A stretch of DNA of 64,000 nt from Gammaproteobacteria bacterium (GTDB taxonomy: Bacteria; Pseudomonadota; Gammaproteobacteria; Ga0077536). The stretch is from positions 280,397-344,396 of the forward strand of contig JACKNG010000003.1 of assembly GCA_024235015.1 (NCBI GenBank), given 5' to 3'. The notes below the pieces were generated by a model. The model was not told where the DNA came from and searched no databases. It saw only the letters and a program-made list of their open reading frames with translations. This document shows positions 16,760 through 60,059 of this stretch, piece after piece; within the stretch, counting starts at the first letter, position 1, and each line of letters opens with the position of its first letter. A program made the position numbers and the translations under genes.

Positions 16760-16866
16760 CAAGGGGACAGTTTACTTTTCGCCGTCGCCGCCCCTGGGAA
16801 CGGTTTACTTTGCAGCGTCACGGCGGCACACCCGCGCGCCAGGCACAAGTAAGCTGTCCCCCTTGT
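16760..16866. repeat. GGGGACAG-family extragenic hairpin repeat, copy 1 (contains an internal third half-copy)
   Basis: Left arm CAAGGGGACAGTTTACTTTT (16760-16780) and right arm CAAGTAAGCTGTCCCCCTTG (16847-16866) form an imperfect stem of about 20 bp. The loop contains GGGAACGGTTTACTTT, a related unit. The same head GGGGACAG(T)(G/T)TACTTTT occurs at 59993 and 26634. Confidence 0.55.
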
Positions 16867-16894
16867 CGGCGCCGACACGGCTCTCGCCGGCCGC

Positions 16895-17854
16895 TCAGCC
16901 CAGCAGCAGCGCGGCCGCAAGCGCCAGGCCGTGAACATGCGCGGCCAGGATGGCCGCGACGATGGTCCGATCGAGCACGGCCGGCTGCGCGGCGTGACGC
17001 CACAGGCCGCGCGCCGCGAGCAGCGCCGGCGGCAAGCCGAGCCCCGCCAGCACGACCGTCCACGGCAGCGCGCCGCGGGTGACGGCGAAGGCAAGCCAGG
17101 CATAGGCCGGCAGCACCAGCACGGCGTAGAGGCCGCGCCCGCGCCGCGCGCCGAGGCGTACCGCCAGCGTGCGCTTGCCCGCGGCAGCATCGGCGGCGCA
17201 GTCCGGGAAGGCATTGACGCCGAGCACGCCGGCCACGTGCAGCGCGTAGGCGAGGCCCACCCACCAGGGCGTCGCGGCGAAACCGCCGCGCTGGACGTAG
17301 TCCGTACCCACCACCACCAGCAGCCAGGCCAGCGCGACGACGGCCTCGCCGACGCCGCGATTCATCAGGGCCAGCGGCGGTGCCGAGTAGCCCCACGCCA
17401 GCGCCAGGCCGAGCAGGCCAATGGCGAGCAGGCCGCCACCACTCACCGCCACCAGCCACGCCCCGGCGACGACCACGCTGGCCAGCAGCAGGTAAGCGAG
17501 CCGCGCCACGCTCGCCGCCGTCAGCACGCCGTTCTGGATGAAGCGGCTGCCGCCGGTGAAGGGGAAACGCCGCGCGTGGTTCGCCGCGTCGCTGCCGTTC
17601 AACGCGTCGTGGTAGTCGTTGAGCAAGTTGCCGGCGGCGTGGGCGACGAGGGCGAACAGGGCGGCGACGCAGGCTCGCGCCGGCGCGATCGCGATACCGT
17701 CCGCAGCAGCACTCGCCAGCCCCAGCAACACCGCCACCGCGGTGATCGACAGGAAAGCCGGGCGCGTCGCCGCGAGCAGGCGCGGCAGCACATGCGGGTA
17801 GCGTGACGGCGTCGGTTCGCGCGCCGCGCGCGCGGCCGCGGGGCCGCCGCTCAT
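16895..17854 (-). CDS. UbiA-family aromatic prenyltransferase (MenA/UbiA-like)
   Basis: NDYHD and DAAAGKRTL aspartate-rich motifs in a polytopic membrane protein. Confidence 0.7.
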   Translation of the reverse strand: MSGGPAAARAAREPTPSRYPHVLPRLLAATRPAFLSITAVAVLLGLASAAADGIAIAPARACVAALFALVAHAAGNLLNDYHDALNGSDAANHARRFPFTGGSRFIQNGVLTAASVARLAYLLLASVVVAGAWLVAVSGGGLLAIGLLGLALAWGYSAPPLALMNRGVGEAVVALAWLLVVVGTDYVQRGGFAATPWWVGLAYALHVAGVLGVNAFPDCAADAAAGKRTLAVRLGARRGRGLYAVLVLPAYAWLAFAVTRGALPWTVVLAGLGLPPALLAARGLWRHAAQPAVLDRTIVAAILAAHVHGLALAAALLLG

Positions 17855-17861
17855 GGCGGTT

Positions 17862-18467
17862 TCACAGCGCCGCGGCGCGGACGTAGGCCGGGCGTGCCTG
17901 GAGCCGTTCGAGGTAGGCGACGAGACGTGGGAAGCGCCCGTCCAGCACGCCGAACACCTGGGCCGCGAACAGGGTGAAGGCCATCATGATGTCGGCCGCG
18001 GAAAAGCCGCTGTCGAGCAGGAACTCGCGCTCGCCGAGATCCGCTTCCAGTACCTCGAAAGCGATCGCCGCGCGCGCCTTGGCGTCGGCGACGAGGTCGG
18101 GATGCTGCTCCGCGTCGTCGCGGTAGCGGGTCAGCCAGACGAGACCACTCAAGGGTGCGAACGCCGTGCTCTCGGAGAAGTGCAGCCATTGCAGGTACTT
18201 CGCCCGTTCCGCGGCGCCCACCGCCGGCGCCAGCCGGCCATTGCCATGACGTTCCAGCAGGTACTCGACGATGGCCCCCGATTCGAACATCTCGACCTCG
18301 CCGTCGGCGATCGCCGGGACCTTGCCGAAGGGCGTCTGCTGCGCGAACAGGCGTCCGGCCACCGGCTTGAACACGACCGTCTCGACGGCATACTCGAGGC
18401 CGAGTTCCTCGAGTAGCCAGATGATGCGCATCGAGCGCGTGCGCGGCGCGTGGTAGACCTTGATCAT
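17862..18467 (-). CDS. glutathione S-transferase
   Basis: N-terminal thioredoxin-like GST domain (MIKVYHAPRTRSMRIIWLLEELGL...GKVPAI..ESGAIVEYL) followed by a C-terminal helical domain. Confidence 0.75.
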   Translation of the reverse strand: MIKVYHAPRTRSMRIIWLLEELGLEYAVETVVFKPVAGRLFAQQTPFGKVPAIADGEVEMFESGAIVEYLLERHGNGRLAPAVGAAERAKYLQWLHFSESTAFAPLSGLVWLTRYRDDAEQHPDLVADAKARAAIAFEVLEADLGEREFLLDSGFSAADIMMAFTLFAAQVFGVLDGRFPRLVAYLERLQARPAYVRAAAL

Positions 18468-18526
18468 CGCCGCACACCCTCCTCGCCATTCGCCACCACC
18501 ATCCCCCCACGCGCATTGCCAGCGCC

Positions 18527-20656
18527 TCAGGACGCCTTCGCCACTTCGACCAGGTTGTCGGAGAAGGTCGGCGCATGCCCCATGTCGACGAACTCCGCGC
18601 TCGACACCACGTTGACCGTGCCGCGGTTGAGCTGGCGCCAGTAGCCGAGGGTGGCGACGACGATGCCTGGGTTGACGTCGTCGGAGATCTCGGCGACCGC
18701 TTCGAAGGCGCCGCGCTCGTTGAACACCCGCACGGCCTCGCCGTCGCCGATGCCACGACGCGCCGCGTCGACGGCGTTGATGAGCAGGAACTGCTCGCCC
18801 TGGCCCTTCAGCTTGCCGGCCATGTTGGCGTAGCAGGAGTTGAGAAAGCCGTGACTCTTGGGCGAGACGATGTTGAGAGGAAAGCGCGCGGCGAGCGCCG
18901 GGTTGCTGGCCGGGCTCTCGCGCGGCGGCACGTAATCGGGCACGGCGTCGAGCGGCTCGCCGCCCTGCATGTCGGTGTACATCTGGCGGAACGGCGGCGC
19001 GACGAAATTGCCGCCGGCGGCGATGCTCGACTCGAATTCACACTTGCCGGACGGCGTGGGAAAGTTGCCTTCGCGATGCGGCGCGCGATCGTCCGCCGTG
19101 CCGAGCGCGAGGCGGACGAAACCCCGCTCGCGCAGGCTGGCGAGGTCGAAACCGGCGCAGGCCGGTGCCGACCAGTCGACGAACCGTTCCAGGCACTCGG
19201 CGTCCGACCATTGGAACTCGGGCTCGTCGTAGCCCATGCGCGCGGCCAGGCGGCGGAAGATCTCGCGGTTGGACAACACCTCGCCCGGCGGCTCGGCGCA
19301 GGCCGCGTTCCAGGTCAGGTAGTTGTGGCCCCAGGACAGGATGATGTCCTCCATCTCCGCACCCATGGCCGCGGGCAGGAGGATGTCGGCGTAGCGCGCG
19401 ACGTCGGTGACGAAATGCTCGGCGACGACGAGAAAGAGATCCTCGCGTTCGAGTCCGCGCACGATCTTGTCGCCCTCGGGCGCCTGGGTGACCGGGTTCG
19501 AGTTCCAGCACATCAGCGACAGGATCGGCGGGTCGAGCGGGATCTCGCCGGTGAGCAGGCGGCCGAGTTGGAGGTTGTTGACCGCGCGCGTGCCGGGCGG
19601 GATCCAGTCCGGCCGGCAGATGGCGTCGAAGTCGTAGGGATGCTCCCACACCGGCATGGCGAGGATGCCGCCGCCGACGTGGCGCCAGGCGCCGGTCAGG
19701 GCCGGCAGGCAGCACACCGCGCGCACCGTCTGGCCGCCACCGTGATGGCGCTCCAGGGCGACGCCGATGCGGATGGCGGCGGGCTGGGTGCCGGCGTACT
19801 CGTGGGCGAGGCGGCGGATGTCGGCGGCCGGCACCCCGGTGATGCCCTCGGCCCACTCCGGCGTGCGCGCCTGCGCCCGCGCGGCCAGCGCGTCGTAGCC
19901 CTGCGTGTAGCGCTCGACGTAGTCGCGATCGACCAGGCCGTCCGCGATCAGGACGTGGATCAGGGCCATGGCCAGCGCGCCGTCGGTACCCGGCCGCGGC
20001 GCGATGTGCCAGTCGGCCTCGCGCGCCGTGCGCGAACGGTAGGCATCGATGACGACGACCTTCGCTCCCGCCTTCTGCGCATCCTTGACGACGTGCCAGT
20101 GGTGCAGGTTGGTGCTGACGCTGTTGCAGGCCCAGATGACGATGAACTTCGCGTGGCGGAAGGACTCGGGGTCCACACCGCCACTCGGGCCGTAGGTCAT
20201 CAGCCAGGCGGTCGCCGCGCCCTCGCCGCAGAAGGTGCGTTCCATCACCGTCGCGCCCATGCGGTTGAAGAAGGCGTCGCCGCCGTTCAGCCCGTGCACC
20301 AGGCCCTGGTGGCCGAGGTAGCTGTAAGGCGCGATGGCCTGCGGCCCGTGCGCGGCGATGATCGCCTGCCAGCGCGCGGCGATGGTGTCGAGCGCCTCGT
20401 CCCACGAGATGCGCGCGAACTCGGCGCTGCCCTTGGGCCCGACCCGCTTGTGCGGGTAGAGCAGGCGCTCGGGATGGTAGTGCCGCTTCTCGTAGTCGCG
20501 CAGCTTGACGCACAGGCCGCCGCGGGTGAGCGGGTGGTCCGGGTTGCCGCGCACGCCGACCAGGCGGCCGTCCTCGACCTCGAACTGCATCGAGCAGGTG
20601 TCGGGACAATCGTGCGGGCAGCCGCCGTGGTGGATGGTGCGCGTGCTCGTCGTCAT
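18527..20656 (-). CDS. molybdopterin-dependent oxidoreductase (MopB superfamily) with N-terminal Cys cluster
   Basis: N-terminal CPHDCPDTC...C 4Fe-4S-type motif followed by molybdopterin dinucleotide-binding domains. Standalone, with no partner subunits in the window; substrate is unknown. Confidence 0.75.
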   Translation of the reverse strand: MTTSTRTIHHGGCPHDCPDTCSMQFEVEDGRLVGVRGNPDHPLTRGGLCVKLRDYEKRHYHPERLLYPHKRVGPKGSAEFARISWDEALDTIAARWQAIIAAHGPQAIAPYSYLGHQGLVHGLNGGDAFFNRMGATVMERTFCGEGAATAWLMTYGPSGGVDPESFRHAKFIVIWACNSVSTNLHHWHVVKDAQKAGAKVVVIDAYRSRTAREADWHIAPRPGTDGALAMALIHVLIADGLVDRDYVERYTQGYDALAARAQARTPEWAEGITGVPAADIRRLAHEYAGTQPAAIRIGVALERHHGGGQTVRAVCCLPALTGAWRHVGGGILAMPVWEHPYDFDAICRPDWIPPGTRAVNNLQLGRLLTGEIPLDPPILSLMCWNSNPVTQAPEGDKIVRGLEREDLFLVVAEHFVTDVARYADILLPAAMGAEMEDIILSWGHNYLTWNAACAEPPGEVLSNREIFRRLAARMGYDEPEFQWSDAECLERFVDWSAPACAGFDLASLRERGFVRLALGTADDRAPHREGNFPTPSGKCEFESSIAAGGNFVAPPFRQMYTDMQGGEPLDAVPDYVPPRESPASNPALAARFPLNIVSPKSHGFLNSCYANMAGKLKGQGEQFLLINAVDAARRGIGDGEAVRVFNERGAFEAVAEISDDVNPGIVVATLGYWRQLNRGTVNVVSSAEFVDMGHAPTFSDNLVEVAKAS

Positions 20657-20873
20657 AGCCTGATCTCCCCGGTAGTGAGCGGCGCGCGCGCCTGCACTGT
20701 CGCGGTGCAGTTGCGGCGGCGGCGCGCGGCCACCTCATGCTAGCAGTCCGCATCGCCACGCGCACTGAACCACCCTACGGCGGCGCACGTAGCAGTAACA
20801 GTGGCAAACTTCGGCGAGAAGACGGCTTGGCCACGTCGCCGTTGGCCCCGGCATCGCTGCAGGATGTACGCAC

Positions 20874-21953
20874 GTGAACCAGACGGACTTGAGCTTACTC
20901 GACCAGATGCGCATCACGGACCTCGAGTTCGAACGGCGCAAGGCGTACATCGGTTTCGATGATGCCGACGTCGCCGCCCTGGTCGAAGTGCGCCGGATCG
21001 TGCTCGAAGTCTGCGACGATCTCGTCGAGCGCTTCTACGCCGCGCAGACCCGCGTGCCGGAGATCGCGCTGCTCATCGGCGATGCCGACACCCTGCGCCG
21101 CCTGGCCGCGGCCATGGGGCAATACGTGGTCGAACTGTTCAGCGGCCTCTACGATCTCGAGTACGTCAGCGACCGCCTGCGCATCGGTCTCGTGCACAAG
21201 CGTATCGGCGTCGATCCCACGCTCTACCTGTCGGCCATGCACCAGCTGCGCCGCCTGCTCGGCGAGACCATCGACGACGGCGTGGACGACCCTGCCCTGC
21301 GCCACGCCGCGCAGGTGGCGCTGGACAAGCTCTTCACGCTCGATACCACCCTGGTATTCGAGACCTACGTGCGCATGCTGGTGGCCGAGGTCGAGGAGTC
21401 GCGCAACCGCGCCGAGCGCTACGCGCAGGAACTCGAGGAGAAGGTGCGCGAACGCACGCGGCAGCTCGAGGAACTGGCGCACACCGACGCCCTCACCGGC
21501 TTGCTCAACATGCGCCACATCGATCACGCCCTGACCCGCGCGCTGCGCGGGGCCCAGCGCCGCGCCGAACCCGTGACCGTGATCTTCATCGACATCGACG
21601 ATTTCAAGCAGATCAACGACCACGAGGGCCATCCGTTTGGTGACGAGGTGCTGCGCAGCGTCGCCACGATCCTGCAACGGGTGCTGCGCGCCGACGACAA
21701 CGCGTTCCGCTACGGCGGCGACGAGTTCTGCCTGATCCTGCCGAACTGCGACGAACAGCAGGCCATGGCCCAGATCGTCACGCGCATCGAAGCCGAGCTC
21801 GAAACCGTGAACGACGCTGTCAGCCTCAGCTTCGGCGTGGCCCAGACCGGCCCCGCGCGTTACGTCAGCGGTGACGCCCTGCTGGCCGAAGCCGACCGCC
21901 TCATGTACGCCGCCAAGCGCGCGCACAAGCGGGACGGCGACGCGACGCCCTGA
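20874..21953 (+). CDS. globin-coupled sensor diguanylate cyclase (protoglobin-like N-terminus + GGDEF)
   Basis: N-terminal sensor-globin features (proximal-His region LVHKRIGVDPTLYL). C-terminal GGDEF domain with an intact RYGGDEF active site and an RxxD-like I-site. GTG at 20874; alternative ATG at 20907. Confidence 0.75.
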   Translation: MNQTDLSLLDQMRITDLEFERRKAYIGFDDADVAALVEVRRIVLEVCDDLVERFYAAQTRVPEIALLIGDADTLRRLAAAMGQYVVELFSGLYDLEYVSDRLRIGLVHKRIGVDPTLYLSAMHQLRRLLGETIDDGVDDPALRHAAQVALDKLFTLDTTLVFETYVRMLVAEVEESRNRAERYAQELEEKVRERTRQLEELAHTDALTGLLNMRHIDHALTRALRGAQRRAEPVTVIFIDIDDFKQINDHEGHPFGDEVLRSVATILQRVLRADDNAFRYGGDEFCLILPNCDEQQAMAQIVTRIEAELETVNDAVSLSFGVAQTGPARYVSGDALLAEADRLMYAAKRAHKRDGDATP

Positions 21954-22154
21954 CCACCGCGCAGGGTCGCGCCCGGGATTCGACCTGCAGTCGCGGGCCG
22001 ACGGCCACGGCGCACCGCGAACCCGCCGAGCGCGCGCCACAGCGCGGGCGGCAAGGGTGCGACGGCGGCCTCCTGCGCCAGGGATGCGGCCAGCACCCCC
22101 GCGCCGCGCGGGCGCGCGGCTGCATCGCGGAGAACGACTCGGGGGATGGACCCG

Positions 22155-22180
22155 TGTCGACGGCGGGACCGCCGTCGACA
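22155..22180. repeat. perfect 12-bp inverted repeat TGTCGACGGCGG-GA-CCGCCGTCGACA between convergent genes
   Basis: Read directly from sequence. No U-tract follows on either strand. Confidence 0.5.
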
Positions 22181-22253
22181 CCTGAGGCGACCTCTGCGCG
22201 CCGGCCCTGGCGGGCGGGTACGTGAGCGCCGCGGGACGCCCGCGTGCGGATGC

Positions 22254-22679
22254 TCAGAGCTTGCGGAAGGCCTCTGCCGCGATCTGACCGATCTCCTCGT
22301 CCTGCTGGTAGGTACCACCGCTCTGGCCCAGCGCGCCGAGCATGCTGCCGTCGTCGGCGCGCAGCACGATGCCGCCCCACACCGGCGTGTAGTGCGGATC
22401 GCAGAACCAGGTGATCTCGCGCCGCTCGTCGCCGAGCGACATGTCGAACAGGCGGGTCTTGAGCACGCGCGTGTCCATCTGCCACTTGACCGCGGTGTAG
22501 GCCTTGTTGTGACTCATGCGCGCGTTCAGCGCCGAGGCGCCGTCCATGCGCGCGAGGTGAATGAGGTCGCCGCCGGCATCGACGACGGCCGCGGCGAACT
22601 TGATGCCGCGGCTGCCTGCCTCATTCAACATGGTGTCGACGATGAGGCGTGCCGCGTCGAGATCGAGCTTGTTCGCCAT
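22254..22679 (-). CDS. GlcG/HbpS-like heme-binding protein (DUF336)
   Basis: MANKLDLDAARLIVDTMLNEAGSRGIKFAAAVVDAGGDLIHLARMDGA... matches the GlcG/DUF336 fold family. Confidence 0.7.
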   Translation of the reverse strand: MANKLDLDAARLIVDTMLNEAGSRGIKFAAAVVDAGGDLIHLARMDGASALNARMSHNKAYTAVKWQMDTRVLKTRLFDMSLGDERREITWFCDPHYTPVWGGIVLRADDGSMLGALGQSGGTYQQDEEIGQIAAEAFRKL

Positions 22680-22787
22680 GTCAGGTTCTCCTCGGTGTGT
22701 TCATAGAGACGCCGATTATGCGCCAGCGGCACGCGTCCGGGCAGCGCATGCTTCGCCCCGGGTGCCGCATCCGCGTCCCCGTCGACC

Positions 22788-26424: not shown

Positions 26425-26633
26425 ACCTCGCGGGCGCCGCGTTGGCGTCACCACGGCCCGGATCCTGGTGCAGGCGGCGCGCGGCCGGCCATTGTCCCGC
26501 GCACGCCGCATCGACCGGACGCGGGCGTGGATTGCCGGCGCGGGTTGCGACGCCAGCATCGGCGACCGCGTCATTTCCCGGCGCACCGTCAGGCGGCGCA
26601 GGCCGGCGCTCGCGCGAGGCATGGCCGAGTGAC

Positions 26634-26700
26634 GGGGACAGGGACCTTCTGCCGACGCCGCAGCGGCCTCCGGACTGCGCGTCAGAAGATCCCTGTTCCC
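26634..26700. repeat. GGGGACAG-family hairpin repeat, copy 3 (divergent)
   Basis: GGGGACAGGGACCTTCTG (26634-26651) pairs with CAGAAGATCCCTGTTCCC (26683-26700), 16/18 matching with a 31-nt loop. Lies between convergent genes. Confidence 0.45.
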
Positions 26701-26734
26701 ACCGCGCGCCCCGGCGCCGCGGAGCCTTCGCGGG

Positions 26735-26953
26735 TCAACGGTGTTCTCGTGCGTCGCCCGCGGCTTCGACGAACGCCACCAGCATCGCGTTCCGCGACAG
26801 GTTGCGGAACGTGCCCACCCCGCGCGAGACGTCGCCGGCCAGTTCGTCGCCGACGCAGGTGCTGTGTTCGTTGATCGCCTTGAGCAGCCTGGTGCTGCCG
26901 GCGTCACTGACGACGATGTGGTCCCAGTCGACGTCGATCACGTGTGCAATCAT
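26735..26953 (-). CDS. DUF1488-like small protein (hypothetical)
   Basis: 72 aa. The pattern MIAHVIDVDWDHIVVSDAGSTRLLKAINEHSTCVGDELAG resembles the DUF1488 consensus (I.F.....WD....v.F.A......C.is.E.L). Weak call. Confidence 0.35.
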   Translation of the reverse strand: MIAHVIDVDWDHIVVSDAGSTRLLKAINEHSTCVGDELAGDVSRGVGTFRNLSRNAMLVAFVEAAGDAREHR

Positions 26954-27143
26954 GGCCTGGCGTCCTCGTGCGGTGTCTTGCCAACCCTAGGCGGTGCGGG
27001 ACGGGCCGGGGGTGCGACAGTCGGCACACGTGCCACCCGAAACAAAGTTTTACGGCCGGCGCCGGCCACCGCGTCGACCCGGCGGCGCCCGCCGTGCCGC
27101 GCCCGGTGTCTGACACCGCTGGGTACGTTGTTGAAGCGGGACC

Positions 27144-28000
27144 TCAGCGGCGCTGGCCGAACTCGAAGATGACGGTGTCGCCCTTGTTGTGCAGCACGTA
27201 CTGGGTACGCTCGCCGTCGCGCTGGCGGGCGAGGCGCGGCGCGTTCGCGTCGGTGGCGGCTCCCTGTCCGCCTGCTGCCGCCAGTGCCGCCGGGATGGTC
27301 GCGGCAGGCGCGCTCGTGCCCGCTCCGCTCGCTGCGGCCGCGCCGACGGGCTCAACGCCGGACGCCACCGCGGGGGCATCGGCGGCCACCTGGCGCTTCT
27401 CGATGAATACGTCCGGGTCGGCCGTGGGCAGGATGTGGCGGCGCGGTGCCGGTTCGAGGACAACCACGCGCTGTTCGTCGAGCAGCGCCGCGCAGGCGTT
27501 CCCGACCCGGTCGGCGAGATAGGCGCCGTCGCCGAGCCGCGCGGGATCGACCGGTTGGTCGACCTGTCGCGCCGCGACCAGTCGCCCGGCCGGGGTGCGC
27601 AGGCGGCAGTCGATGGCGACGACGTCGCCCTCGATGCGGCCGGCCTCGCGCGGTCCGCCGAGGGTGAAGGCGAAGCCGCGTTCGATCTCGGCGTGGCGCA
27701 ACGTGCCGATGGCGACGTCGAGGGTCAGCACGTGGTCGCCGGCCGGTGCACACGGCGCCGTCGTGCACCACGCGCTGTCGACGCGGGCGAAACCGTCGGC
27801 GGCGAACCCTTGCGCGAGCGCGGTTTCGAAGGCGTCCCTGGCGGCCGGGTCGAGTACCGCGTGACCGGCCACGCCGACGGCCAGGCGCGGGCCGTCCGCC
27901 GCGGTGGCGGCGAGCGCGGCGTCACCGCCGGCAGCGAGGACCGCGGCCATCAGCACGTCCGCCAGGCCCGGCGCGGGCGTGCAGGACATCGGCCGCGCCC

Positions 28001-29911: not shown

Positions 29912-31611
<1,700 letters not shown>

Positions 31612-31615
<4 letters not shown>

Positions 31616-31929
31616 GGCGTGCCCTCCAGCGGCCCCATGACCGTGCCACGGAAACCGTACACGCGGCGCAGCCCGGCGTAGGGCACCAGCGTGACGGTGC
31701 GGGTCTGGCCGGGCTCGAAACGCACCGCCGTGCCGGCCGGGATGTCGAGGCGCTGGCCGCGCGCCGCGGCGCGATCGAATTCCAGCGCCGGGTTGGTCTC
31801 GGCGAAGTGGTAGTGCGAACCGACCTGCACGGGGCGGTCGCCGGTGTTGGCAACGGCCAGCTCGATCACCGGGCGGCCGGCGTTGAGTTCGATCTCGCCG
31901 TCGTCGACGAAGAGTTCTCCTGGGATCAT
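31612..31929 (-). CDS. ureB: urease beta subunit
   Basis: 105 aa, [19 protein letters not shown].... Confidence 0.9.
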
Positions 31930-31954
31930 GGCGGGGTCCTCGCGCGCCTGCGCT

Positions 31955-51993: not shown

Positions 51994-52003
51994 CGTGCGG
52001 ACC

Positions 52004-53005
52004 ATGAGCGTACGGGCCACGCTCGGCCTGCTCGTCGCACTGCTCCTCGCCGGCTGCGGCGACCCCGAGCCGCTGGTGCTCGAGGGCCGCCCGGGCGGCC
52101 CCTACCGCATCACCCTGGAACTCGCGCCGGCGCCGCTCGTCGCCGGCACCCCCACCCGCTTCACCGAGCGCCTGCGCCACACCCGCGACGGCAGCCCGGT
52201 CCGCGACCTGCAGGTGGTGCACGAACGCGCCGTGCACAACTTCGTCGTCGCGCGCGACTTCTCGAGCTTCGCCCATGTCCACCACGAGGACAGCGAGGCC
52301 CTCACGGCCGCCGATCTCGACGCCGCCACCTTCCATTTCGATTACACCTTCCCGCACCCCGGCCACTATCGCGTGGTCAGCGAATTCACCCACCACGACC
52401 GCGGCTGGATCAAGCATTTCGACCTCGTCGTGGGCGCCCCGGGGCCACCGGCCGAAGTCGTCGTCGACCTCGCACGCGAGAAGCAGGTCGGCCCCTACAG
52501 CGCGCGCCTGGAGGTGTCGCCGGCGGTGCCGGTGGCCGGTTTCGAGACCGAGCTCGTGCTCGACCTCGCACGCGAGGGCGTCCCGGTGACCGACCTGCAG
52601 CTCCTGCTCGGCTCGGAAGTACACGTTGCCCTGTGGCGCGTGGACGGCGAGCACTTCGGGCATGCGCACAGCTACACCCCGCACATGGCGGCCATGTTCG
52701 CCGAGATGCACGATCGCCAGCTCGACCCCGCCGCGCGCGCCGAACGCATGGCACAGATGATGGTGGCGATGATCGACATGCCGGCCGAGCTGGTCTACCC
52801 GGGGCCGCGTATCCCGGTGCGCCTGGTGTTCCCCGAGCCCGGGGTCTACGCCGTGTTCATGCAATGCGCGCCGGGCGGCGAACCGCGCGTGTTCGAGTTC
52901 ATGGTCGAGGTCGCGCGCTTCGTCGAGGGCATGGACACCCACATCGATTCGATGGTCGTACCCGCACACGCCGCGCCGCACGGCGGCGCACACGGCGGCA
53001 CATGA
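52004..53005 (+). CDS. lipoprotein with tandemly duplicated His-rich domain (hypothetical)
   Basis: Lipobox LLAGC. Two homologous domains of about 150 aa (PYRITLELAPAPLVAGTPTRF... and PYSARLEVSPAVPVAGFETEL...), each with HxH/HH clusters; the C-terminal end is HAAPHGGAHGGT. Confidence 0.5.
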   Translation: MSVRATLGLLVALLLAGCGDPEPLVLEGRPGGPYRITLELAPAPLVAGTPTRFTERLRHTRDGSPVRDLQVVHERAVHNFVVARDFSSFAHVHHEDSEALTAADLDAATFHFDYTFPHPGHYRVVSEFTHHDRGWIKHFDLVVGAPGPPAEVVVDLAREKQVGPYSARLEVSPAVPVAGFETELVLDLAREGVPVTDLQLLLGSEVHVALWRVDGEHFGHAHSYTPHMAAMFAEMHDRQLDPAARAERMAQMMVAMIDMPAELVYPGPRIPVRLVFPEPGVYAVFMQCAPGGEPRVFEFMVEVARFVEGMDTHIDSMVVPAHAAPHGGAHGGT

Positions 53006-53607
53006 AGGCGGCGGCGGTCGCCGGCCTCGCCCTGCTGCTGGGCCTGGGCGTGGTGCCGGCGCAGGCCGGGCACGGCCTCATGAACGCCTTCAGCGACATC
53101 GCCTGGCTGCCCGACCCCGGACGTACCCCGGACCAGGCCGACTACCCGCTGGATGCGCTGGCCGAGCGCGCCCGCCTCGCCCTCGCCGACAGCGACGAAC
53201 GCCTCGCGCTCAGGCTCGACTACGCGCGCGAGAAGCTGGCCGAGGTCGAGGCGATGGTCGCGGCGGAAAAACCAGGGCCGGCGAACGTCGCCATCGACGC
53301 CTGGCTGGCCCACGTCGACGCCGCCATGGCCGAGATCGACGCCCTCGCGCCGGACGCCTCGGCGGCCGCCGCCGGGCGCCTCGCCAACGCGCTGCTCGAG
53401 CACCAGTACCTGATGTCGATCGGCTACCTCGACCTGCCGCGCGACACCCGCACCGTGATCGGCCGGGTCATGGCCGCGGCCCGCGCCCATTACGACACCC
53501 TCGTCGCCGGCCTGCCACAGGCTTTCAAGGACGCCCAGTTCTTCAAGGAGGAGGAGGTGCGCTGGTCGTGGGAAATGGCCACCCGCGGCGATGCCCAGGG
53601 CCTGTGA
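53002..53607 (+). CDS. secreted hypothetical protein
   Basis: ATGA overlap with the upstream lipoprotein gene; signal peptide MKAAAVAGLALLLGLGVVPAQA; Ala-rich helical. Confidence 0.4.
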   Translation: MKAAAVAGLALLLGLGVVPAQAGHGLMNAFSDIAWLPDPGRTPDQADYPLDALAERARLALADSDERLALRLDYAREKLAEVEAMVAAEKPGPANVAIDAWLAHVDAAMAEIDALAPDASAAAAGRLANALLEHQYLMSIGYLDLPRDTRTVIGRVMAAARAHYDTLVAGLPQAFKDAQFFKEEEVRWSWEMATRGDAQGL

Positions 53608-53886
53608 AGCCCGCCGTATCGACGCACCGCCGGGGCGATCCGCGGGCGGCCCCGCCCGGCGGGCGCACAGGTCGGCGGGCGCGGCGAGGGGCGAGCGGGA
53701 AGCGCGTTTCGTGCCAGCGGACGCGCCGCGCCGGGCGACGCGGAAGACAAGCGGCGGGCGGCACGGCCAGGTGTTCAGGCCGCCCCTGAAAATATTTTCC
53801 CGGCGACACCGCAGTCTCGATTAAAATCACGCCAGCGCGCGTGCCGCGCGCGGCCTTACACTCATTGCCCACCCGACGGAGATCCA

Positions 53887-55611
53887 GTGTCCGAAAAAGT
53901 CCTCACCGACGTCTGTTTCGAAAACTTCGCGTTACATCCCCAGTTGCTCAAGGGTCTGGAAGAAGCGGGTTTCGTCCGCTGCACCCCGATCCAGGCCATG
54001 ACCCTGCCTCTCACCCTCGAGGGCAAGGACGTCGCCGGCCAGGCCCAGACCGGCACCGGCAAGACTGCTGCCTTCCTGGTCGCGCTGTACAACCGCCTGC
54101 TGAACCGGGATGCCCTGCCGCAACGCCGGGCCGAGGATCCGCGTGCCGTGATCCTGGCACCGACCCGCGAACTGGCCGTCCAGATCGAAAAAGACGCCCA
54201 CCAGATCGGCGCCCATACCGGCCTGCGCCTGGCCCTCATCTACGGCGGCGTCGACTACGACAAGCAACGTGCGGCACTGGAAGCCGGCGTCGACCTGGTC
54301 ATCGCCACGCCGGGCCGCCTCATCGATTTCCTCAAGCAGGGCACGGTCAGCTTCCAGGCCATCGAGATGATGGTCCTCGACGAAGCCGACCGCATGTTCG
54401 AGCTCGGCTTCATCAAGGACATCCGCTACATCATCCGCCGCATGCCGGGGGCGAGCGAACGCCAGAACCTGCTGTTCTCGGCCACCCTCAGCCACCGCGT
54501 GCTGGAACTCGCCTACGAGCACATGAACGACCCGGAGAAGCTGGTCGTCGAGAGCGACAGCATCACCGCGGCCAACGTGCGCCAGGCGGTGTACTTCCCG
54601 GCGCGCGAGGAAAAGCTGCCGCTGCTGCTCGGCCTGCTGGCCAAGACCGAGACCGATCGCAGCATGGTCTTCGTCAACACGAAGGCTGCCTGCGAGCGCG
54701 TCGCCCTGACCCTCGAGCGCGCCGGTTACAAGGTCGGCGTGCTGTCCGGCGACGTGCCGCAGAAGAAACGCGAGAGCCTGCTCGGCCGCTTCGTGCGCGG
54801 TGAGCTCAACTTCCTCGTCGCCACCGACGTCGCCGCGCGCGGCCTGCACATCCCGGCGGTGAGCCACGTCTACAACTTCGACCTGCCGTTCGATGCCGAG
54901 GACTACGTCCACCGCATCGGCCGCACCGCCCGCCTCGGCGCCGAGGGTGATGCGATCAGCTTCGCCTGCGACGAGTACGCCATGAGCCTGCCCGACATCG
55001 AGGCCTACATCGAGCAGAAGATCCCGGTGGAATCGATCAACCCGGAACTGCTCGCGCCGCTGCCGCCGCGCCGCCCGCGCGGCGAGGGCGGCGAGAGCGT
55101 GGTCGAGGACGCCATGGCGGATGCGGCGGAGACGCGCCGCAAGCGGCGCGAACGCGACCGCCGTGACGGCGATCGTGGCGGCCGTTCGCATAGCGGTTCA
55201 CGCGGCGCCCCCCGTGGCGACGGCCGTCGCGAGGGCGGCGAACGCGGGCGCCGGCGCAGCGAAGGACCGCGCGAGGAACGTCCGCGCGAGCCGCGCGAAG
55301 CAGAGGCCCCGGCAGAAGCACCAGCGATGCCTGCCGCAGCTTCGCCACCACGAGCGGACGGCGACGGCCCGGCTGGCGAGGCGCCGCGCAAGCGCCGGCG
55401 CCGCGGACGTGGGCGCCGCCGCCCGCAGGGCGAGGACGCCGCCAGCGCGAACGGCGCGAACGGCGCGGCGCGCGCCGAGCACACGCCGGCGTCGACGGCA
55501 GCCGCGGCACCGGAGGCGACCGGCAAGCCGACGCCCAAGCTGTCGATGCGTATCAAGCAGTCCTTCCGCTCGCTGGCCAAGCGCTTCGGCTTTGCCGGTC
55601 GTCGCGGTTGA
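53887..55611 (+). CDS. rhlB: DEAD-box ATP-dependent RNA helicase RhlB-like with Arg-rich C-terminal tail
   Basis: Q-motif, Walker [13 protein letters not shown] (VLDEAD), SAT and HRIGRTAR motifs. C-terminal [17 protein letters not shown] low-complexity tail. GTG start after a GGAG RBS. Confidence 0.85.
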
Positions 55612-55651
55612 GTGGAAGGGGTCCGCCCCGCTAGCACACAGGAGACCTGCC

Positions 55652-56104
55652 ATGGCCCTGCCCGAACCCGGCGCCACCGCGCCCGCTTTCACCCTGCCCA
55701 ACCAGGACGGTCGCGACGTCAGCCTCGGCGACTTCGCCGGCCGTCGCGTCCTGCTGTGGTGGTATCCCAAGGCCGACACCCCCGGCTGAACCATCGAAGG
55801 CAAGGGGTTCCGTGATCGAATCCCCGACTTCGCCGCCCACGACACCGTGGTGCTCGGCGTGAGCAGCGATGCACCGGCCGCCAACGCCGCGTTCCGCACC
55901 AAGTTCGACTTCCCCTACGACCTGCTGAGCGACGTCGACCTCGCCATGTCGACGGCCTACGGCGCGGCCGCCGCCGGCGCCGCGCGCGCCAGCCGCGTCT
56001 CGGTGCTGATCGGCGGCGACGGCCGCGTGCTGCGGAGCTACGCCGAGGTCAAGCCGGGCGACCATCCTGCCGAGGTGCTCGGCGACCTCGCCGGCCTCGA
56101 CTGA
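55652..56104 (+). CDS. Bcp/PrxQ-type peroxiredoxin selenoprotein candidate; in-frame TGA (Sec) at 55787-55789 replacing peroxidatic Cys
   Basis: ATG at 55652 with an AGGAG RBS 7 nt upstream. Translation [45 protein letters not shown]-[TGA][48 protein letters not shown]... aligns with the Bcp consensus ...YPKDDTPGCTKEACGFRD...VLGVSxD.... The TGA falls exactly at the catalytic Cys, and the downstream ORF 55847..56104 is in the same frame. Confidence 0.5.
55795..55832 (+). promoter_or_regulatory. candidate SECIS-like extended stem-loop downstream of UGA 55787
   Basis: An outer CGAAG/CUUCG stem encloses an inner GGGG(UU)/(AAU)CCCC stem, with an apical loop CCGUGAUCG containing GU. Starts 5 nt after the UGA. 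Imperfect. Confidence 0.25.
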
Positions 56105-56220
56105 GGCCCGCGCCGGGCGGCGTCGGCCGGGGTAAGGATCGCCGGCCTGCCGCCGCTAACCCCGGGAGCATCGACGCTCCGGGGTGGAGCGTGCGCGAGT
56201 GGAGGAGGAGAAGCAGCACC

Positions 56221-57012
56221 ATGGCGGGAGCAGCCGCGACAGTGACCCAGGCCGGCCTGGGCAATGAACCCGTATACGTCTTCGGCACCGACCTCGGTGG
56301 CCAGCACCAGGGCGAGAGCGCCGCGATGGCCGCCAAGGTGTTCGGCGCCGAAACCGGCAAGGCGAGCGGTGCGACCGGCCACGCCTATGCCATCCCCTTC
56401 CGCAACAGCGCCGGCGAACTGCTGCCCGCCGAAGTGATCAAGAACTACGTCGATTCCTTCTTCGCCCACGCCCAGGCCCACCCGCAGACCCTGTTCCACG
56501 TCGCGCGCTTCGCCTGCGAGGCCCAGGCGCACGACGACGCCACCCTGGCCCGGCTGTTCGCCAGGGCGCCGGCCAACTGCCTGCTACCGGGCCTGTGGAC
56601 GGCCCGCCTCAACGCGCAGCAGGCGGCGCGCCTGCTGGTCTTCGACGCCGGCGCCCATCTCAAGGACGCCGCCTGGCAACGGAACCTCAAGGGCTACCTC
56701 GACCTCAACGCGCCGTTGTGGAACGTCAAGGCCATCGAACTCGTCACGGTGGGCAGCGCACGCACCGTGGTCGCCAACGACGTCGCGGCCAAGGCGCTGG
56801 GCCTCAAGCACCGCGTGTTCGGCCAGAACGAGTCGGCCTACGGCCGCGAGGCGGCCCTGGTCGCCGAGCACAAGGCGATCTGGTATTGCACCCACCTGCT
56901 CAGCATTCTCGATTTCGAGCAGACCGCCCAGCCGCAGCAGGTGCGCATGCTCGGCGCCGCCGCGCGCAACGGCCTGGCCATCGATCAGTTGAGCAGCACG
57001 CAGGCCGGCTGA
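56221..57012 (+). CDS. protein with N-terminal A1S_2505-like domain (phage non-structural-protein family homolog) and C-terminal extension; hypothetical
   Basis: VYVFGTDLGGQHQGESAAMAAKVFGAETGKASGATGHAYAIPF resembles the FGSN..GRHGAGAA......GAE.G...G.TG.SYAIPTKD family signature. Confidence 0.4.
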   Translation: MAGAAATVTQAGLGNEPVYVFGTDLGGQHQGESAAMAAKVFGAETGKASGATGHAYAIPFRNSAGELLPAEVIKNYVDSFFAHAQAHPQTLFHVARFACEAQAHDDATLARLFARAPANCLLPGLWTARLNAQQAARLLVFDAGAHLKDAAWQRNLKGYLDLNAPLWNVKAIELVTVGSARTVVANDVAAKALGLKHRVFGQNESAYGREAALVAEHKAIWYCTHLLSILDFEQTAQPQQVRMLGAAARNGLAIDQLSSTQAG

Positions 57013-57082
57013 CGCCGGCCGGGCTCGCGTCGCCCCTGCCGTGGGCGGCATACTGGGCGCGGTCCAAGCCGCGTCTGCATCG

Positions 57083-58147
57083 ATGAAGACCGAAACCCTG
57101 TTGCCACTGGGCAAGCTCGATCCCGGCCTCGCCGTGCCCGACTCTCCGCTCGATCTCGCCAGCGTGCCGCGCGAAGCCGGCCTCGTCGATCGGCTCGGCT
57201 ACCACGGCCTGCTGATGGAAGAGACCAAGGACGACCCTTTCGCCGTCCTCGCCCTCGCCGCCACGGCGAGCAGCCGCGTCCAGCTCGGCACCTCGGTCGC
57301 CATCGCCTTCGCGCGCAGTCCCTACGTCACCGCGATGTCGGCGTGGACCCTGCAGAAGCTCTCCGGCGGGCGCTTCGAGCTCGGCCTCGGCTCGCAGGTC
57401 CGCGGTCACGTACGCCGCCGCTTCGGCATGGAATGGCATCCGCCGGGTCCATGGATGCGCGACTACGTGCGCGCGGTGCGCGCGATCTGGACGGCCTGGC
57501 AGCACGAGACCCGGCTCGAGTTCGACAGTGCGCACTACAAGCTCGATCTCTCGGTGCCGCTGTTCACCCCGGCACCGATCGAACATCCCGACATTCCCAT
57601 CCTGGTTGCCGCGGTCAATCCGTACATGGCCGGCGTCGCCGCCGCGGTCGCCGACGGTGTGCGCCTGCACCCGGTGTGTTCACCGCGCTACATCGCCGAG
57701 GTGATCCGCCCGGCGGTGGCGGCACGGCGTCCCACCGGACAGCGTTTCGAGCTGTGTCTGAAGCCGCTCATCGCCACCGCCGGTGACGCCGACACGCTGG
57801 CGCGGCGCACCGAGATCGCGCGCCAGCGCCTCGCTTTCTATGTCAGCACCCCGGCCTACCGCCTGCCGTTCGAGCGCGCCGGTCTCGGCGACCTCGCCGC
57901 CGAACTCGCGCAACTGTCGAAGCAGCAGCGCTGGAACGAGATGGCCAAGCGCATCGACGACGCCGTGCTGCACGAGTGGGTCGTCGTCGCGCCCTACGCG
58001 GATCTCGCCGCGACCCTCGTCGCCCGTTACGGCCAGCTCGTCGATCGCGTCGAAGTCAGCATTCCGCAGTCCACGCCTGGCGACCACGCGGTCCTGGCGG
58101 GCATCCTCGACGAACTCGCGCGCGCGCCCGCGGCCCCAGCCGCGTGA
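57083..58147 (+). CDS. LLM-class (luciferase-like) flavin/F420-dependent oxidoreductase
   Basis: TIM-barrel LLM family features (GYHGLLMEETKDDPFAVLA..., ELGLGSQVRGHVRRRFGMEW). Confidence 0.65.
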   Translation: MKTETLLPLGKLDPGLAVPDSPLDLASVPREAGLVDRLGYHGLLMEETKDDPFAVLALAATASSRVQLGTSVAIAFARSPYVTAMSAWTLQKLSGGRFELGLGSQVRGHVRRRFGMEWHPPGPWMRDYVRAVRAIWTAWQHETRLEFDSAHYKLDLSVPLFTPAPIEHPDIPILVAAVNPYMAGVAAAVADGVRLHPVCSPRYIAEVIRPAVAARRPTGQRFELCLKPLIATAGDADTLARRTEIARQRLAFYVSTPAYRLPFERAGLGDLAAELAQLSKQQRWNEMAKRIDDAVLHEWVVVAPYADLAATLVARYGQLVDRVEVSIPQSTPGDHAVLAGILDELARAPAAPAA

Positions 58148-58190
58148 CGCGCGTGTGCACCGCGTTCTATTTCCACAGTTCCTGACCGGT

Positions 58191-58219
58191 TTGATCTGGA
58201 TTAGAGCGCCCGGGATAAT
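58191..58219 (+). promoter_or_regulatory. sigma-70 promoter candidate for sodB (TTGATC-17nt-GATAAT)
   Basis: -35 at 58191-58196 and -10 at 58214-58219; about 66 nt upstream of the ATG at 58286. Confidence 0.4.
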
Positions 58220-58285
58220 GCGCCCACCTACCGGGCGCGCCGCATCGGGCGCAGTCCAGTCCGCTCATCAAACCAGGAGAAAGAC

Positions 58286-58876
58286 ATGGCCCATTCCGTG
58301 CAGCAATTGCCTTACGACCTCACGGCGCTCGAACCGCACATCTCGCGCGAGACGCTCGAGTTCCACCATGGCAAGCACTATGCCGGTTACGTCGCCAAGC
58401 TCAACGCCGCCATCGAGGGTAAGGACGAGGACAAGCTCAGCCTGCTCGACCTGGTCAAGAAAGGTCCGTCGACGGCGTACTTCAACAACGCCGCCCAGAC
58501 CTGGAACCACGAGTTCTATTTCAATGCCTTCAGCGCCAAGGGCGCACGCGAACCGTCCGGCGACCTGGCCAAGGCGATCAGCGCCAAGTTCGGCGATTTC
58601 GCCAAGTTCCGCGAGGCCTTCAATGCCCAGGCGACCGGCCTGTTCGGCTCCGGCTGGACCTGGCTCGTGCTCGACGGCAAGGGCGAACTCGCCATCGTCA
58701 ACACCGGCAATGCCGGCAACCCGGTCAACGACGGCATGACCCCGCTGATGACCTGCGACGTGTGGGAGCACGCCTACTACATCGACTACCGCAACCTGCG
58801 CCCCGACTACCTCAAGGGCTTCTGGGAAGTGCTCGACTGGAACGTCGTCGGCCAGCACTACGCCGCGGCGAAGTAG
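58286..58876 (+). CDS. sodB: Fe/Mn superoxide dismutase (Fe-SOD-like)
   Basis: LPYDLTALEPHISRETLEFHHGKHY and DVWEHAYYIDYRN signatures. Confidence 0.9.
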   Translation: MAHSVQQLPYDLTALEPHISRETLEFHHGKHYAGYVAKLNAAIEGKDEDKLSLLDLVKKGPSTAYFNNAAQTWNHEFYFNAFSAKGAREPSGDLAKAISAKFGDFAKFREAFNAQATGLFGSGWTWLVLDGKGELAIVNTGNAGNPVNDGMTPLMTCDVWEHAYYIDYRNLRPDYLKGFWEVLDWNVVGQHYAAAK

Positions 58877-59019
58877 GCCCACCGCCCCGCCCGGCCGGGT
58901 CCTTGCCCGGCCGGCGCCTGGCCCGGCGGCGTGCCTGCGCTGCCGCGCCCTGCATTCCCAGTGCACCGTCTGCCGCTGCTGGCCACCGCGCGCAGCCAGT
59001 GTCTCCAGGCTGACCGTCG

Positions 59020-59928
59020 ATGCCTGAAACCCGGGCCCGCAAGCGACTCCACACCCTGTTCGCCGGCCGACGCTCAGCGCGCGCCTACCTCGTGTTCACC
59101 GCCCAACTCGCCCTGCTCGCACTGCTCACGCCGATGCTGGTCAGCCTGGCGGTATTCGGCCTCACCGCCGTGCTCGGCGGGACTGCTGGCGCATCTACCG
59201 AAGCCGTCATCGGCACGCTCGTCACGCTCGCCTTCGGCGGCCTCGCCTTCGCCCAGCTACGCGCCACCGTGCAGCGCCTGCACGACGCCGGCCGCGATGC
59301 GCGCTGGCTGGCGCCGTTCGTGCTCGTCGCCACCGCGGCATTCGCCGCGCGGGGTCATCCCGCGGCCGTGCCATGGCTGCCCTATGCCTGGGCGCTGGTC
59401 GTACTGGGCTGGCTCGGCCTCGCCCTGTGGCCCGGCACCGCGGGCAGCAATCGCCACGGAGCACCGGTTCCGCTACCCGCGAACAAGCGTGGCACGGGCT
59501 GGCTCGTGGCGGCACTGTTGGTGGGCGGCCTGCTGGCTTTCACCGTCCCGGTCTTCCTGCAGCAAGAAGAACGACGTTATGCCGTGCAGGGCTACGAGTG
59601 GGCGGCCAAGCGGCGTCAGCACGTCGAGAACGTCTATCGCATCCAGGGACGTTTCCCGGCGAACAACGCCGAGGCCGGGCTGACCGCGCTCGGCGCCATG
59701 CACGGACGCTACGTGGCGGCAGTCGAGGTCGGCGCCGGCGGCGTACTGACGTTGCGCTACTCGGACGACCCGCGCCTCGGCGACGAGGCGGCCGGCCGCA
59801 CACTGCGGCTCACGCCGACAATCGAGGACCCGGGCGACGACCCCGCCACGGCCGTCATCAGCTGGCACTGCGGCGGCGGCGACCTGCCCCAGCGCCTGCG
59901 CGCGGCAGCCTGTCGCAACACGCCGTGA
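59020..59928 (+). CDS. fusion protein: N-terminal DUF805-like 4-TM membrane domain plus C-terminal type IV pilin-like globular domain (no prepilin leader)
   Basis: The N-terminal domain carries the conserved DUF805 motif LHDAGRDARW. The C-terminal region YEWAAKRRQHVENVYRIQGRFPANNAEAGL...VISWHCGGGDLPQRLRAAACRN resembles pilin C-terminal domains with a disulfide pair. Confidence 0.4.
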   Translation: MPETRARKRLHTLFAGRRSARAYLVFTAQLALLALLTPMLVSLAVFGLTAVLGGTAGASTEAVIGTLVTLAFGGLAFAQLRATVQRLHDAGRDARWLAPFVLVATAAFAARGHPAAVPWLPYAWALVVLGWLGLALWPGTAGSNRHGAPVPLPANKRGTGWLVAALLVGGLLAFTVPVFLQQEERRYAVQGYEWAAKRRQHVENVYRIQGRFPANNAEAGLTALGAMHGRYVAAVEVGAGGVLTLRYSDDPRLGDEAAGRTLRLTPTIEDPGDDPATAVISWHCGGGDLPQRLRAAACRNTP

Positions 59929-59950
59929 AGACCCGAGAAGGAAGGGCGCA

Positions 59951-59995
59951 GGACAGGGGAACGGAGGGTAACGGGAACGGGGGTGAGGGAACGGG
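59951..59995 (+). repeat. G-rich degenerate tandem repeat (GGGAACGG units), possible G-quadruplex-forming tract
   Basis: GGACAGGGGAACGGAGGGTAACGGGAACGGGGGTGAGGGAACGGGGAC has six G-runs of at least 3. Confidence 0.4.
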
Positions 59996-60059
59996 GACAG
60001 TGTACTTTTAGCCGGGCGCTGGCCGCGGCTACACTTCGCACGAAAAGTATACTGTCCCC
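59993..60059. repeat. GGGGACAG-family hairpin repeat, copy 2, between convergent genes (putative bidirectional terminator / REP-like element)
   Basis: GGGGACAGTGTACTTTT (59993-60009) pairs with AAAAGTATACTGTCCCC (60043-60059), 16/17 matching with a 33-nt loop. Confidence 0.55.

Follow-up and report, generated by a model that had tools for sequence, protein, structure and literature searches.

Short inverted repeats that accompany a transposase gene without being REP (repetitive extragenic palindromic) sequences have been described in bacteria by Di Nocera et al. 2013 (BMC Genomics 14:522, PMC3733652), who reported genes resembling those of RAYTs (REP-associated tyrosine transposases) with flanking terminal inverted repeats (TIRs). 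The consensus given for these repeats is GGGGWSAS. The enzymes were named TIRYTs (TIR-associated tyrosine transposases); a TIRtron, in the same nomenclature, is a TIRYT gene in single copy together with the repeats on either side of it (PMC3733652). The TIR families presented there are moderately abundant, many of them occurring "in dimers or clusters". In Quentin et al. 2018 (PMC6006769), TIRYTs are equated with subclass 2.1 of TnpAY1, which corresponds to group 1 in the scheme of Bertels; in Bertels et al. 2017, this group is presented as the largest and most widely distributed of the RAYT groups, with flanking 16-mers found about 12 times per replicon. The subject of the present analysis is a set of three hairpin-forming intergenic repeats in a 64,000-nt stretch of DNA, hereafter called the window (contig JACKNG010000003.1, positions 280,397 to 344,396, of assembly GCA_024235015.1), which belongs to the metagenome-assembled genome (MAG) of a gammaproteobacterium and has a G+C content of 69.7%.

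It is likely that these three loci (two dimers and one cluster) are non-autonomous TIR copies of a TIRtron/TIRYT system, that is, of a system with a group-1 RAYT or TnpAY1 subclass 2.1 enzyme. Such repeats were described in 2013, and what is reported here is a new example, with a core found in more than ten bacterial phyla.

Three hairpin loci recovered by an independent model

An earlier note, made from the sequence alone, had singled out three intergenic loci with inverted arms, and all three are present where it placed them (Table 1). A covariance model (R1), built from 50 elements of other genomes with the window sequence excluded, recovers exactly these loci when the window is scanned: locus 3 with 50.3 bits (E 5e-10), locus 1 with 39.7 bits (E 1.8e-7) and locus 2 with 26.7 bits (E 2.4e-4), the next-best match having an E-value of 2.8. 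Since R1 recovers locus 2 as well, this locus is to be regarded as a diverged member of the family and not as a coincidence. The sequence pattern GGGGACASNNNACTT could serve as an alternative to R1 for scans of the family.

Of the six outer arms, five have the head GGGGACAG, which fits the published TIR consensus; the right arm of locus 2 reads GGGAACAG instead. A search of the window for GGGGACAGNNTACTTT with up to two mismatches gave five matches, against 0.14 expected, a number that none of 100 shuffled sequences reached; a scan of the window for solo arms outside the three loci found none above chance. Each of the three loci gives a better fold than shuffled sequence, whether as RNA (z from -3.7 to -7.1, with -3.7 to -4.1 for locus 1 and -4.4 for locus 2) or as DNA (z of -2.5, -3.6 and -7.4). 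In locus 1, where the extra internal half-copy reported by the earlier note is indeed found, pairing continues outward via CAAG/CTTG and the spacer measures about 65 nt. Locus 2 has the same head as the other loci and a different inner sequence; its GGGGACAGGGA variant recurs in L146, where a nested element has it as its outer layer (handles of this form denote loci fetched for comparison). The 20-nt arms of locus 3, the best preserved of the three, are 95% complementary and are separated by a spacer of 33 nt.

Table 1. Positions in the window of the three hairpin loci, their arms and the tract beside locus 3
Feature	Positions	Strand	Description
Locus 1, probable TIR cluster	16755-16869	.	Left arm, degenerate internal half copy and inverted right arm, giving a long hairpin
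Locus 1, left arm	16760-16782	+	Core GGGGACAGTTTACTT at 16763-16777
Locus 1, internal degenerate half copy	16796-16811	+	GGGAACGGTTTACTTT, in left-arm orientation, 2 mismatches
Locus 1, right arm	16842-16866	-	Core, reverse complement GGGGACAGCTTACTT, at 16847-16861
Locus 2, probable diverged TIR dimer	26626-26708	.	Arms GGGGACAGGGACCTTCTG (26634-26651) and CAGAAGATCCCTGTTCCC (26683-26700)
G-rich stutter tract	59945-59992	+	Degenerate units of GGG(G)+AAC/TGA type, next to the locus 3 left arm on its 5' side
Locus 3, probable TIR dimer, best preserved	59985-60067	.	Arms AACGGGGACAGTGTACTTTT (59990-60009) and AAAAGTATACTGTCCCCGTT (60043-60062)
Locus 3, right arm	60042-60062	+	GAAAAGTATACTGTCCCCGTT, 21-nt identity to the arm over the P0002 stop codon

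A core common to many phyla

The family had been taken for a genome-specific one, a view that does not hold. A pattern made of GGGGACAGNNNACTT, 20-50 nt, AAGT, 3-4 nt and CTGTCCCC was searched with one genome per species and a chance expectation below 1. It returned at least 120 loci from about 80 assemblies (counted from record titles), and the matches listed, which carry the 15-nt core, come from at least 11 phyla. Represented among them are the Alpha-, Gamma- and Zetaproteobacteria, Nitrospirota, Myxococcota, Chloroflexota, Bacillota, Acidobacteriota, Actinomycetota, Planctomycetota, Thermodesulfobacteriota, Omnitrophota and Tectomicrobia. Some genomes are multi-copy, one Myxococcaceae MAG accounting for at least ten of the loci among the matches listed. 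When viral contigs were scanned for single arms, mainly chance matches were obtained, together with seven true dimers; the contigs with inverted pairs have a G+C content of 50-67%.

The anatomy of the element was established from a sample of 126 hairpins. The arm, of about 26-28 nt, is composed of 5-6 variable outer bases, the core GGGGACA[G/C]-NNN-ACTT and 5-7 variable inner bases, and AGTA is almost invariant within it. The inverted repeat reaches about 6 nt outside GGGG, where complementarity is 65-79% and the baseline about 30%, and it continues for 5-7 nt inward of ACTT. In nearly every element the core triplet matches between the two arms (TTT/TTT in 61, GCT/GCT in 33 and TAT/TAT in 10 of the 126); a CAT triplet marks a further arm subfamily. 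Covariation of the arms, which the earlier note had named beforehand as a test by which its proposal could be refuted, was observed: in the clean alignment of 50 sequences from which R1 was built, with a helix of 28 pairs, 88.9% of the cells are paired against 72.3% after shuffling, and double changes occur in 241 cells against 96, a value that none of 500 shuffles reaches, while slid controls give 38-53% pairing. In this test the core columns are set by the search pattern, and the information comes only from the flanks and the triplet.

Arms repeated in tandem in the same orientation, as in locus 1, are also present in L129, L133, L151, L202, L208 and L262. Over 74 nt that include the spacer, locus 3 has 81% identity to an element from the MAG of another gammaproteobacterium (L204), and whole dimers with their spacer are common to otherwise unrelated genome regions. 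On a Woeseiaceae MAG contig (L147, 3277-5359), three dimers lie within 2 kb, two of them with the identical left flank GATGAGTCGAGC, an arrangement that suggests either tandem paralogous genes, each with a trailing dimer, or a larger composite repeat. Also considered was an arrangement in which every arm folds into a stem-loop by itself and the core occupies the loop; it looked real in the Myxococcaceae copies and fails for the arms of the window and for most subfamilies.

The arms flank TIRYT genes

In four loci (L175, L205, L209 and L238), two arms in > ... < orientation stand 700-780 bp apart around a single open reading frame (ORF) of 215-222 aa. All four enclosed proteins match Pfam Y1_Tnp with 42-57 bits. 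Their best NCBIfam model is that of the REP-associated tyrosine transposase, with scores of 66-80 bits that mostly lie below the equivalog cut-off of 80 bits, and their sole sequence match in the Protein Data Bank (PDB) is E. coli TnpAREP. Reference TIRYT sequences were taken from Additional file 5 of Di Nocera et al., and BLASTP aligned the proteins over their full length with gsu2396, bbt5382, mlo6832, dau2153 and gbm2474 at 45-57% identity (E 1e-62 to 1e-98), whereas identity to the E. coli RAYT b228 is 20-23%. The motifs NH[VF]H, WQ, Y..xNP and WSS are all present, and an RTGRPxG...GRP tail is conserved. The search for a RAYT that the earlier note had advised has therefore found its object, since the arms flank genes for RAYT-type tyrosine transposases of the TIRYT kind.

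As an independent test, TIRYT loci were fetched from metagenomes by protein similarity alone, with no DNA pattern. In 37 of the 72 loci that were obtained in this way with enough upstream sequence, GGGGACA[CG] occurs in > orientation within 150 nt before the start codon, the background being 0.7% per scanned window. The nearest upstream arm mostly starts 50-60 nt before the start codon, and a distance of exactly -55, found in 13 loci, is the commonest position. Past the stop codon, at 28-90 nt, an inverted copy follows in 24 of the 64 loci with enough downstream sequence. The typical arm at these loci is GGGGACACCATACTTAATT, and the core GGGGACA[G/C]NNNACTT is common to TIRYT subgroups with only about 30% mutual identity.

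Where an upstream arm occurs in the metagenome loci L242-L321, it mostly keeps a near-fixed distance from the TIRYT start codon; it may overlap the promoter or the 5' untranslated region of the gene, and hence be involved in the regulation of the gene itself. Other arrangements were also recorded. In L296, 13-nt GGGGACACCCTTC units are mirrored around the TIRYT gene, three per side (at about 725-760 and 1500-1530), and at L262 the TIRYT gene is preceded by three direct arms at intervals of 65-67 nt and followed by five. When the TIRYT alignment was used to scan viral contigs, no relatives came up. Plasmids were considered as a vehicle of spread and rejected, TIRYT homologues being found on only 7 of 72,556 plasmid records.

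The family resembles the TIRtron/TIRYT systems (Di Nocera 2013; Quentin 2018; Bertels 2017) in the GGGGWSAS head, the inverted flanking of a RAYT-like Y1 gene, the degree of protein identity given above, its seemingly moderate abundance, its dimers and clusters and its wide taxonomic spread. With respect to what these sources state about the repeats, no basic difference is apparent, the family described here having a much longer shared core.

The same observations could be ascribed to a classical system of REPs and REPINs (REP doublets forming hairpins), with a group 2 or 3 RAYT of the E. coli/Pseudomonas type, in which a repeat unit is in itself an imperfect palindrome of 20-40 nt; every arm would then fold on its own as a REP and carry the 5' guide tetranucleotide GT[AG]G at its foot. 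The family does share with the REPIN-RAYT and REP-TnpAREP systems (Nunvar 2010; Bertels & Rainey 2011; Messing 2012; Corneloup 2021) the inverted pairs of short repeats, the long intergenic hairpin, and the association of apparently non-autonomous repeats with a single-copy HUH/Y1 enzyme that has flanking repeats of its own. The best NCBIfam model, the almost invariant AGTA and the best structural match of a family protein (4ER8, see below) point in the same direction. However, single arms fold no better than shuffled sequence and are not palindromes in themselves, and GTA[T/A/G] is located within the long stem, at a distance of 8-9 nt from the outer end, and not at the foot of a unit hairpin. 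The proteins are 20-23% identical to the E. coli and P. putida RAYTs against 45-57% to TIRYTs, they measure about 215 aa instead of 165 and have a C-terminal extension, and most of them score under the NCBIfam cut-off. Moreover, REP sequences are lineage-specific, whereas the core of this family is common to many phyla. A classical REP/REPIN origin is thus already largely refuted, and we regard it as very improbable; the unlikeness to the E. coli REP consensus that had been pointed out at the start is confirmed.

Other origins for the hairpins

Tn3-family ends start with GGGG, and a derivation of the elements from a DDE-type insertion sequence, for instance one with such an end, has to be weighed. 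The loci would then be miniature inverted-repeat transposable elements (MITEs), moved by cut and paste with duplication of the target site. Their short length, terminal inverted repeats, variable centre and arms beginning with GGGG would agree with this origin, and they are also similar to DDE-type MITEs (Correia/NEMIS, ERIC) in their intergenic site and hairpin transcripts. Nevertheless, no direct repeats surround any of the three loci, the flanks extending the palindrome instead; the genes between long-range arm pairs are always of the Y1/HUH type and never encode a DDE enzyme; the parent gene is that of a Y1 tyrosine enzyme; and the arm is fixed at -55 from TIRYT start codons. We see almost no chance for a DDE origin. 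The loci had been described as a REP/MITE-like family, and of this description the part that remains is that they are short, hairpin-forming extragenic repeats; neither the classical REP, with its self-palindromic arms and GT[AG]G foot, nor the DDE MITE, with its target-site duplication, fits them.

A different explanation would make the loci functional hairpins that evolved locally, with a non-mobile origin, as bidirectional terminators, stabilisers of mRNA 3' ends or small RNAs (sRNAs). It would suit such roles that two of the loci lie between convergent genes, that all three are downstream of a gene and that their RNA hairpins are stable. A terminator scan, however, found no terminator-like site at locus 1 or 3; the loops measure 30-65 nt with no T run after them, and none of the loci looks like an intrinsic terminator. 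Searches of the three loci against Rfam gave no match at the gathering threshold. With an E-value threshold, microRNA-precursor noise was returned together with a weak MH_s7 match (E 0.0025), which was rejected as chance; this match covers mostly the GC-rich flanks, and eight Mesorhizobium loci with many elements of the family do not show it. A literal search of the literature for six arm variants returned unrelated primer matches only. A 15-nt core that extends across at least 11 phyla and is physically linked to a transposase gene is beyond local convergence. A purely local, functional origin is accordingly held to be improbable.

A probable TIRYT of the same organism

No TIRYT gene or remnant was found in the window by tblastn with 16 RAYT and TIRYT sequences, the best match reaching 30 bits. 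With the TIRYT of L205 as query, at least 7,989 protein clusters were retrieved, and among them was P0002, with 87% identity. This protein is MCP5199761.1, which shares its cluster with MCB1747091.1; its gene lies on a contig of 716 kb in a MAG labelled "Gammaproteobacteria bacterium". The genes of the window (MCP5200083, -84 and -85, and MCP5200125, -126 and -127) are numbered sequentially along a 674-kb contig, and in a second assembly, GCA_020444845.1, the window genes are MCB1747949-51. The number of the TIRYT accession differs by a few hundred from those of the window genes in each of the two assemblies. Because the accession numbers are contiguous, P0002 is assigned to the MAG of the window, which very probably encodes this TIRYT on another contig.

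On the contigs with exact P0002 (L322-L327), two tandem dimers lie upstream of the gene and one arm lies over its stop codon. This last arm (L322, 10647-10667) and the right arm of locus 3 match each other without a difference across 21 nt, and the same identity is found at the P0002 orthologue in L205. Copies of the repeat recorded for this organism comprise at least the three loci of the 64-kb window and, beside the probable TIRYT gene, two dimers and a single arm. In both dimers before the gene (L322, 9749-9955), GGTGACAG and CTGTCACC replace GGGGACAG and CTGTCCCC; GGTGAC/GTCACC represents a compensated change in an otherwise invariant core, and the arm 3' of the gene keeps CCCC.

P0002 retains the HUH, WQ and catalytic Tyr motifs. 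Its AlphaFold2 model (mean predicted local distance difference test, pLDDT, 82.9; predicted template modelling score, pTM, 0.84) has three predicted C-terminal helices (residues 158-203) and is closest to 4ER8, the complex of TnpAREP with a REP hairpin (E 1.8e-7); next in rank are the transposases of ISDra2, IS608 and IS200. In two MAGs the gene occurs in the same context, with a response regulator upstream and an HpaB-like gene downstream, the proteins being 87% identical, and it appears to be a single-copy, vertically inherited gene.

Taking these data into account, the loci could also be inert relics, that is, TIRYT-derived copies of a system that is domesticated or dead in this organism, which would be inherited vertically and decay while the TIRYT serves another cellular role. 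The divergence of the three copies and the degeneration of locus 2 would agree with this explanation, as would the conserved gene context of the TIRYT in the two MAGs, which suggests vertical inheritance in single copy, the scarcity of its homologues on plasmids, and the description of RAYTs as domesticated in Bertels 2017. Against it, P0002 has kept its catalytic motifs and the arm adjacent to its gene equals the locus 3 arm over 21 nt. Furthermore, the sister assembly GCA_020444845.1 (L121) is 99.83% identical to the window over 6,346 nt, and of the 11 differences two fall in the 33-nt spacer of locus 3 (60012 and 60033) and none in its arms. This distribution suggests that the spacer is free-running and hints at a constraint on the arms. 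We judge the relic explanation to be unlikely, with a share of probability that is nonetheless appreciable.

Proposed processing by the TIRYT

If the loci are TIR copies of a TIRYT system, the two inverted arms and the 30-65-nt spacer would form a hairpin when the DNA is single-stranded, and folding would occur once the element is exposed in this state, for example on the lagging-strand template. The TIRYT, as an HUH/Y1 enzyme encoded elsewhere in the same genome, would recognise the conserved core in the stem. It would then cut and rejoin single-stranded DNA in the manner of TnpAREP on REPs and of the IS200/IS605 TnpA on its own ends. TnpAREP is known to cleave and join single-stranded REPs in vitro (PMC8266576). 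The dimers would thereby spread in trans into intergenic DNA without target-site duplications, and any effects on neighbouring transcripts would be secondary; the hairpins might have taken on an exapted role at transcript 3' ends. By analogy with these enzymes, the TIRYT probably acts in trans on the dimers while they are folded as single-stranded DNA.

Insertion sequences of the IS200/IS605 family and their miniature derivatives, the palindrome-associated transposable elements (PATEs), are comparable to the family in the HUH/Y1 fold, in the processing of single-stranded DNA as proposed here and in the absence of target-site duplication. Unlike it, the IS200/IS605 elements have subterminal hairpins that differ at each end, lack terminal inverted repeats, are multi-copy and autonomous, and often carry tnpB; the NCBIfam IS200 model scores only 21 bits on the proteins of the family.

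Several points weigh against the assignment to a TIRYT system and against the mechanism proposed for it. The latter is derived wholly by analogy with TnpAREP and IS200/IS605. When the joined flanks of 125 elements were searched against all fetched loci for empty sites, only another occupied orthologous site was found; with neither an empty site nor a presence/absence polymorphism found, mobility is deduced solely from the dispersed multi-copy distribution. Covariation of the arms in a DNA palindrome could reflect the common descent of both arms rather than selection for pairing. The copies in the window are mutually diverged and have unrelated spacers, and so may be old and inactive. As regards the protein, a C-terminal helix-turn-helix (HTH)-like domain is reported for subclass 2.1 in the account of that subclass by Quentin et al. 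2018 (PMC6006769), whereas Pfam gives only Y1_Tnp for the proteins studied here and no such domain (Bac_DnaA_C, HTH_23 or HTH_28), even at E <= 10. The same account states that REP-like sequences were not found beside subclass 2.1 genes. Finally, the presence of P0002 in the MAG of the window is deduced from the contiguity of accession numbers.

Gene context and the tract beside locus 3

Two of the loci lie between convergent genes and one between co-directional genes, as the earlier note had stated, and each locus is downstream of at least one gene. Locus 1 is found between the co-directional minus-strand genes MCP5200085 (prenyltransferase) and MCP5200084, and locus 3 between a DUF805/pilin gene and a thiolase gene, which are convergent. 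The neighbours of locus 2 are an adenylate-cyclase gene and a small ORF on the minus strand (26735-26986), the latter called from codon-position GC alone.

In the stretch around locus 1 (16631-16895), the two neighbouring genes, adjacent in the MAG of the window, carry the distant accessions MCB1746097 and MCB1747911 in GCA_020444845.1, and this assembly therefore has a break in the intergenic region that holds the locus 1 repeat cluster. A break at this point is consistent with what is expected for a multi-copy repeat.

The tandem tract that the earlier note had placed before locus 2 in fact precedes locus 3 and is a G-rich tract of the GGGAACG type (Table 1). Its units read GGACAG GGGAACGGA GGGTAACG GGAACG GGGGTGA GGGAAC, and to the right of locus 3 there is only a partial mirror, CGTTCCC, at 60071-60077. 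Among the 126 elements, GGGG is found at -16 to -4 on the left in 13 (CCCC in 1), and CCCC on the right in 13 (GGGG in 1). About 10% of the family (L143, L146, L197, L203 and L129, among others) have oriented stutters of this kind, in which GGGG is combined with about 6 nt and which are often mirrored on both sides. Slippage at the base of the hairpin and aberrant cleavage and joining are possibilities for their origin.

Two further observations were made in the vicinity of locus 2. From this locus to ureG (26990-28000) there is no ORF with a Pfam match or with clean codon-position GC, and two frames show high third-position GC (GC3) together. Within the minus-strand ORF of the urease alpha subunit (29912-31954), Rfam gives a match to 5_ureB_sRNA on the plus strand (31180-31466; 105 bits, E 1e-26), which most likely reflects the conserved urease coding sequence and not a real antisense sRNA in this gammaproteobacterium.

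Implications

The cross-phylum core, the fixed spacing to the start codon, the covariation of the arms and the pairing of gene and repeats within the same genome suggest a much wider occurrence of TIRYT-linked hairpin dimers, and a greater uniformity of their sequence, than the two papers mentioning them indicate. Several features go beyond what the published descriptions report in the parts devoted to these repeats: the length of the core and its constancy across phyla, the position of the arm fixed at -55, the extensions that covary on either side of the core, the oriented stutters, the apparent propagation as units of dimers with a conserved spacer, and the fact that dimers accompany a subclass 2.1 gene.

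It could be, and we put this forward only tentatively, that TIR dimers are for group 1, or subclass 2.1, which current surveys regard as devoid of REP-like partners, the equivalent of REPINs, the core and the position near -55 being kept across at least 11 phyla as a near-universal protein-DNA code. If this were true, the TIR-dimer code would be unlike that of the lineage-specific REPs, and a single enzyme-substrate pair could be tested on behalf of the whole of group 1. The P0002 protein and the hairpin of locus 3 offer a concrete candidate enzyme-substrate pair for a first assay of cleavage and strand transfer. As for the organism itself, three unexplained hairpins of the window would become annotated repeats with a named partner gene, and the contig break in the sister assembly would find its explanation.

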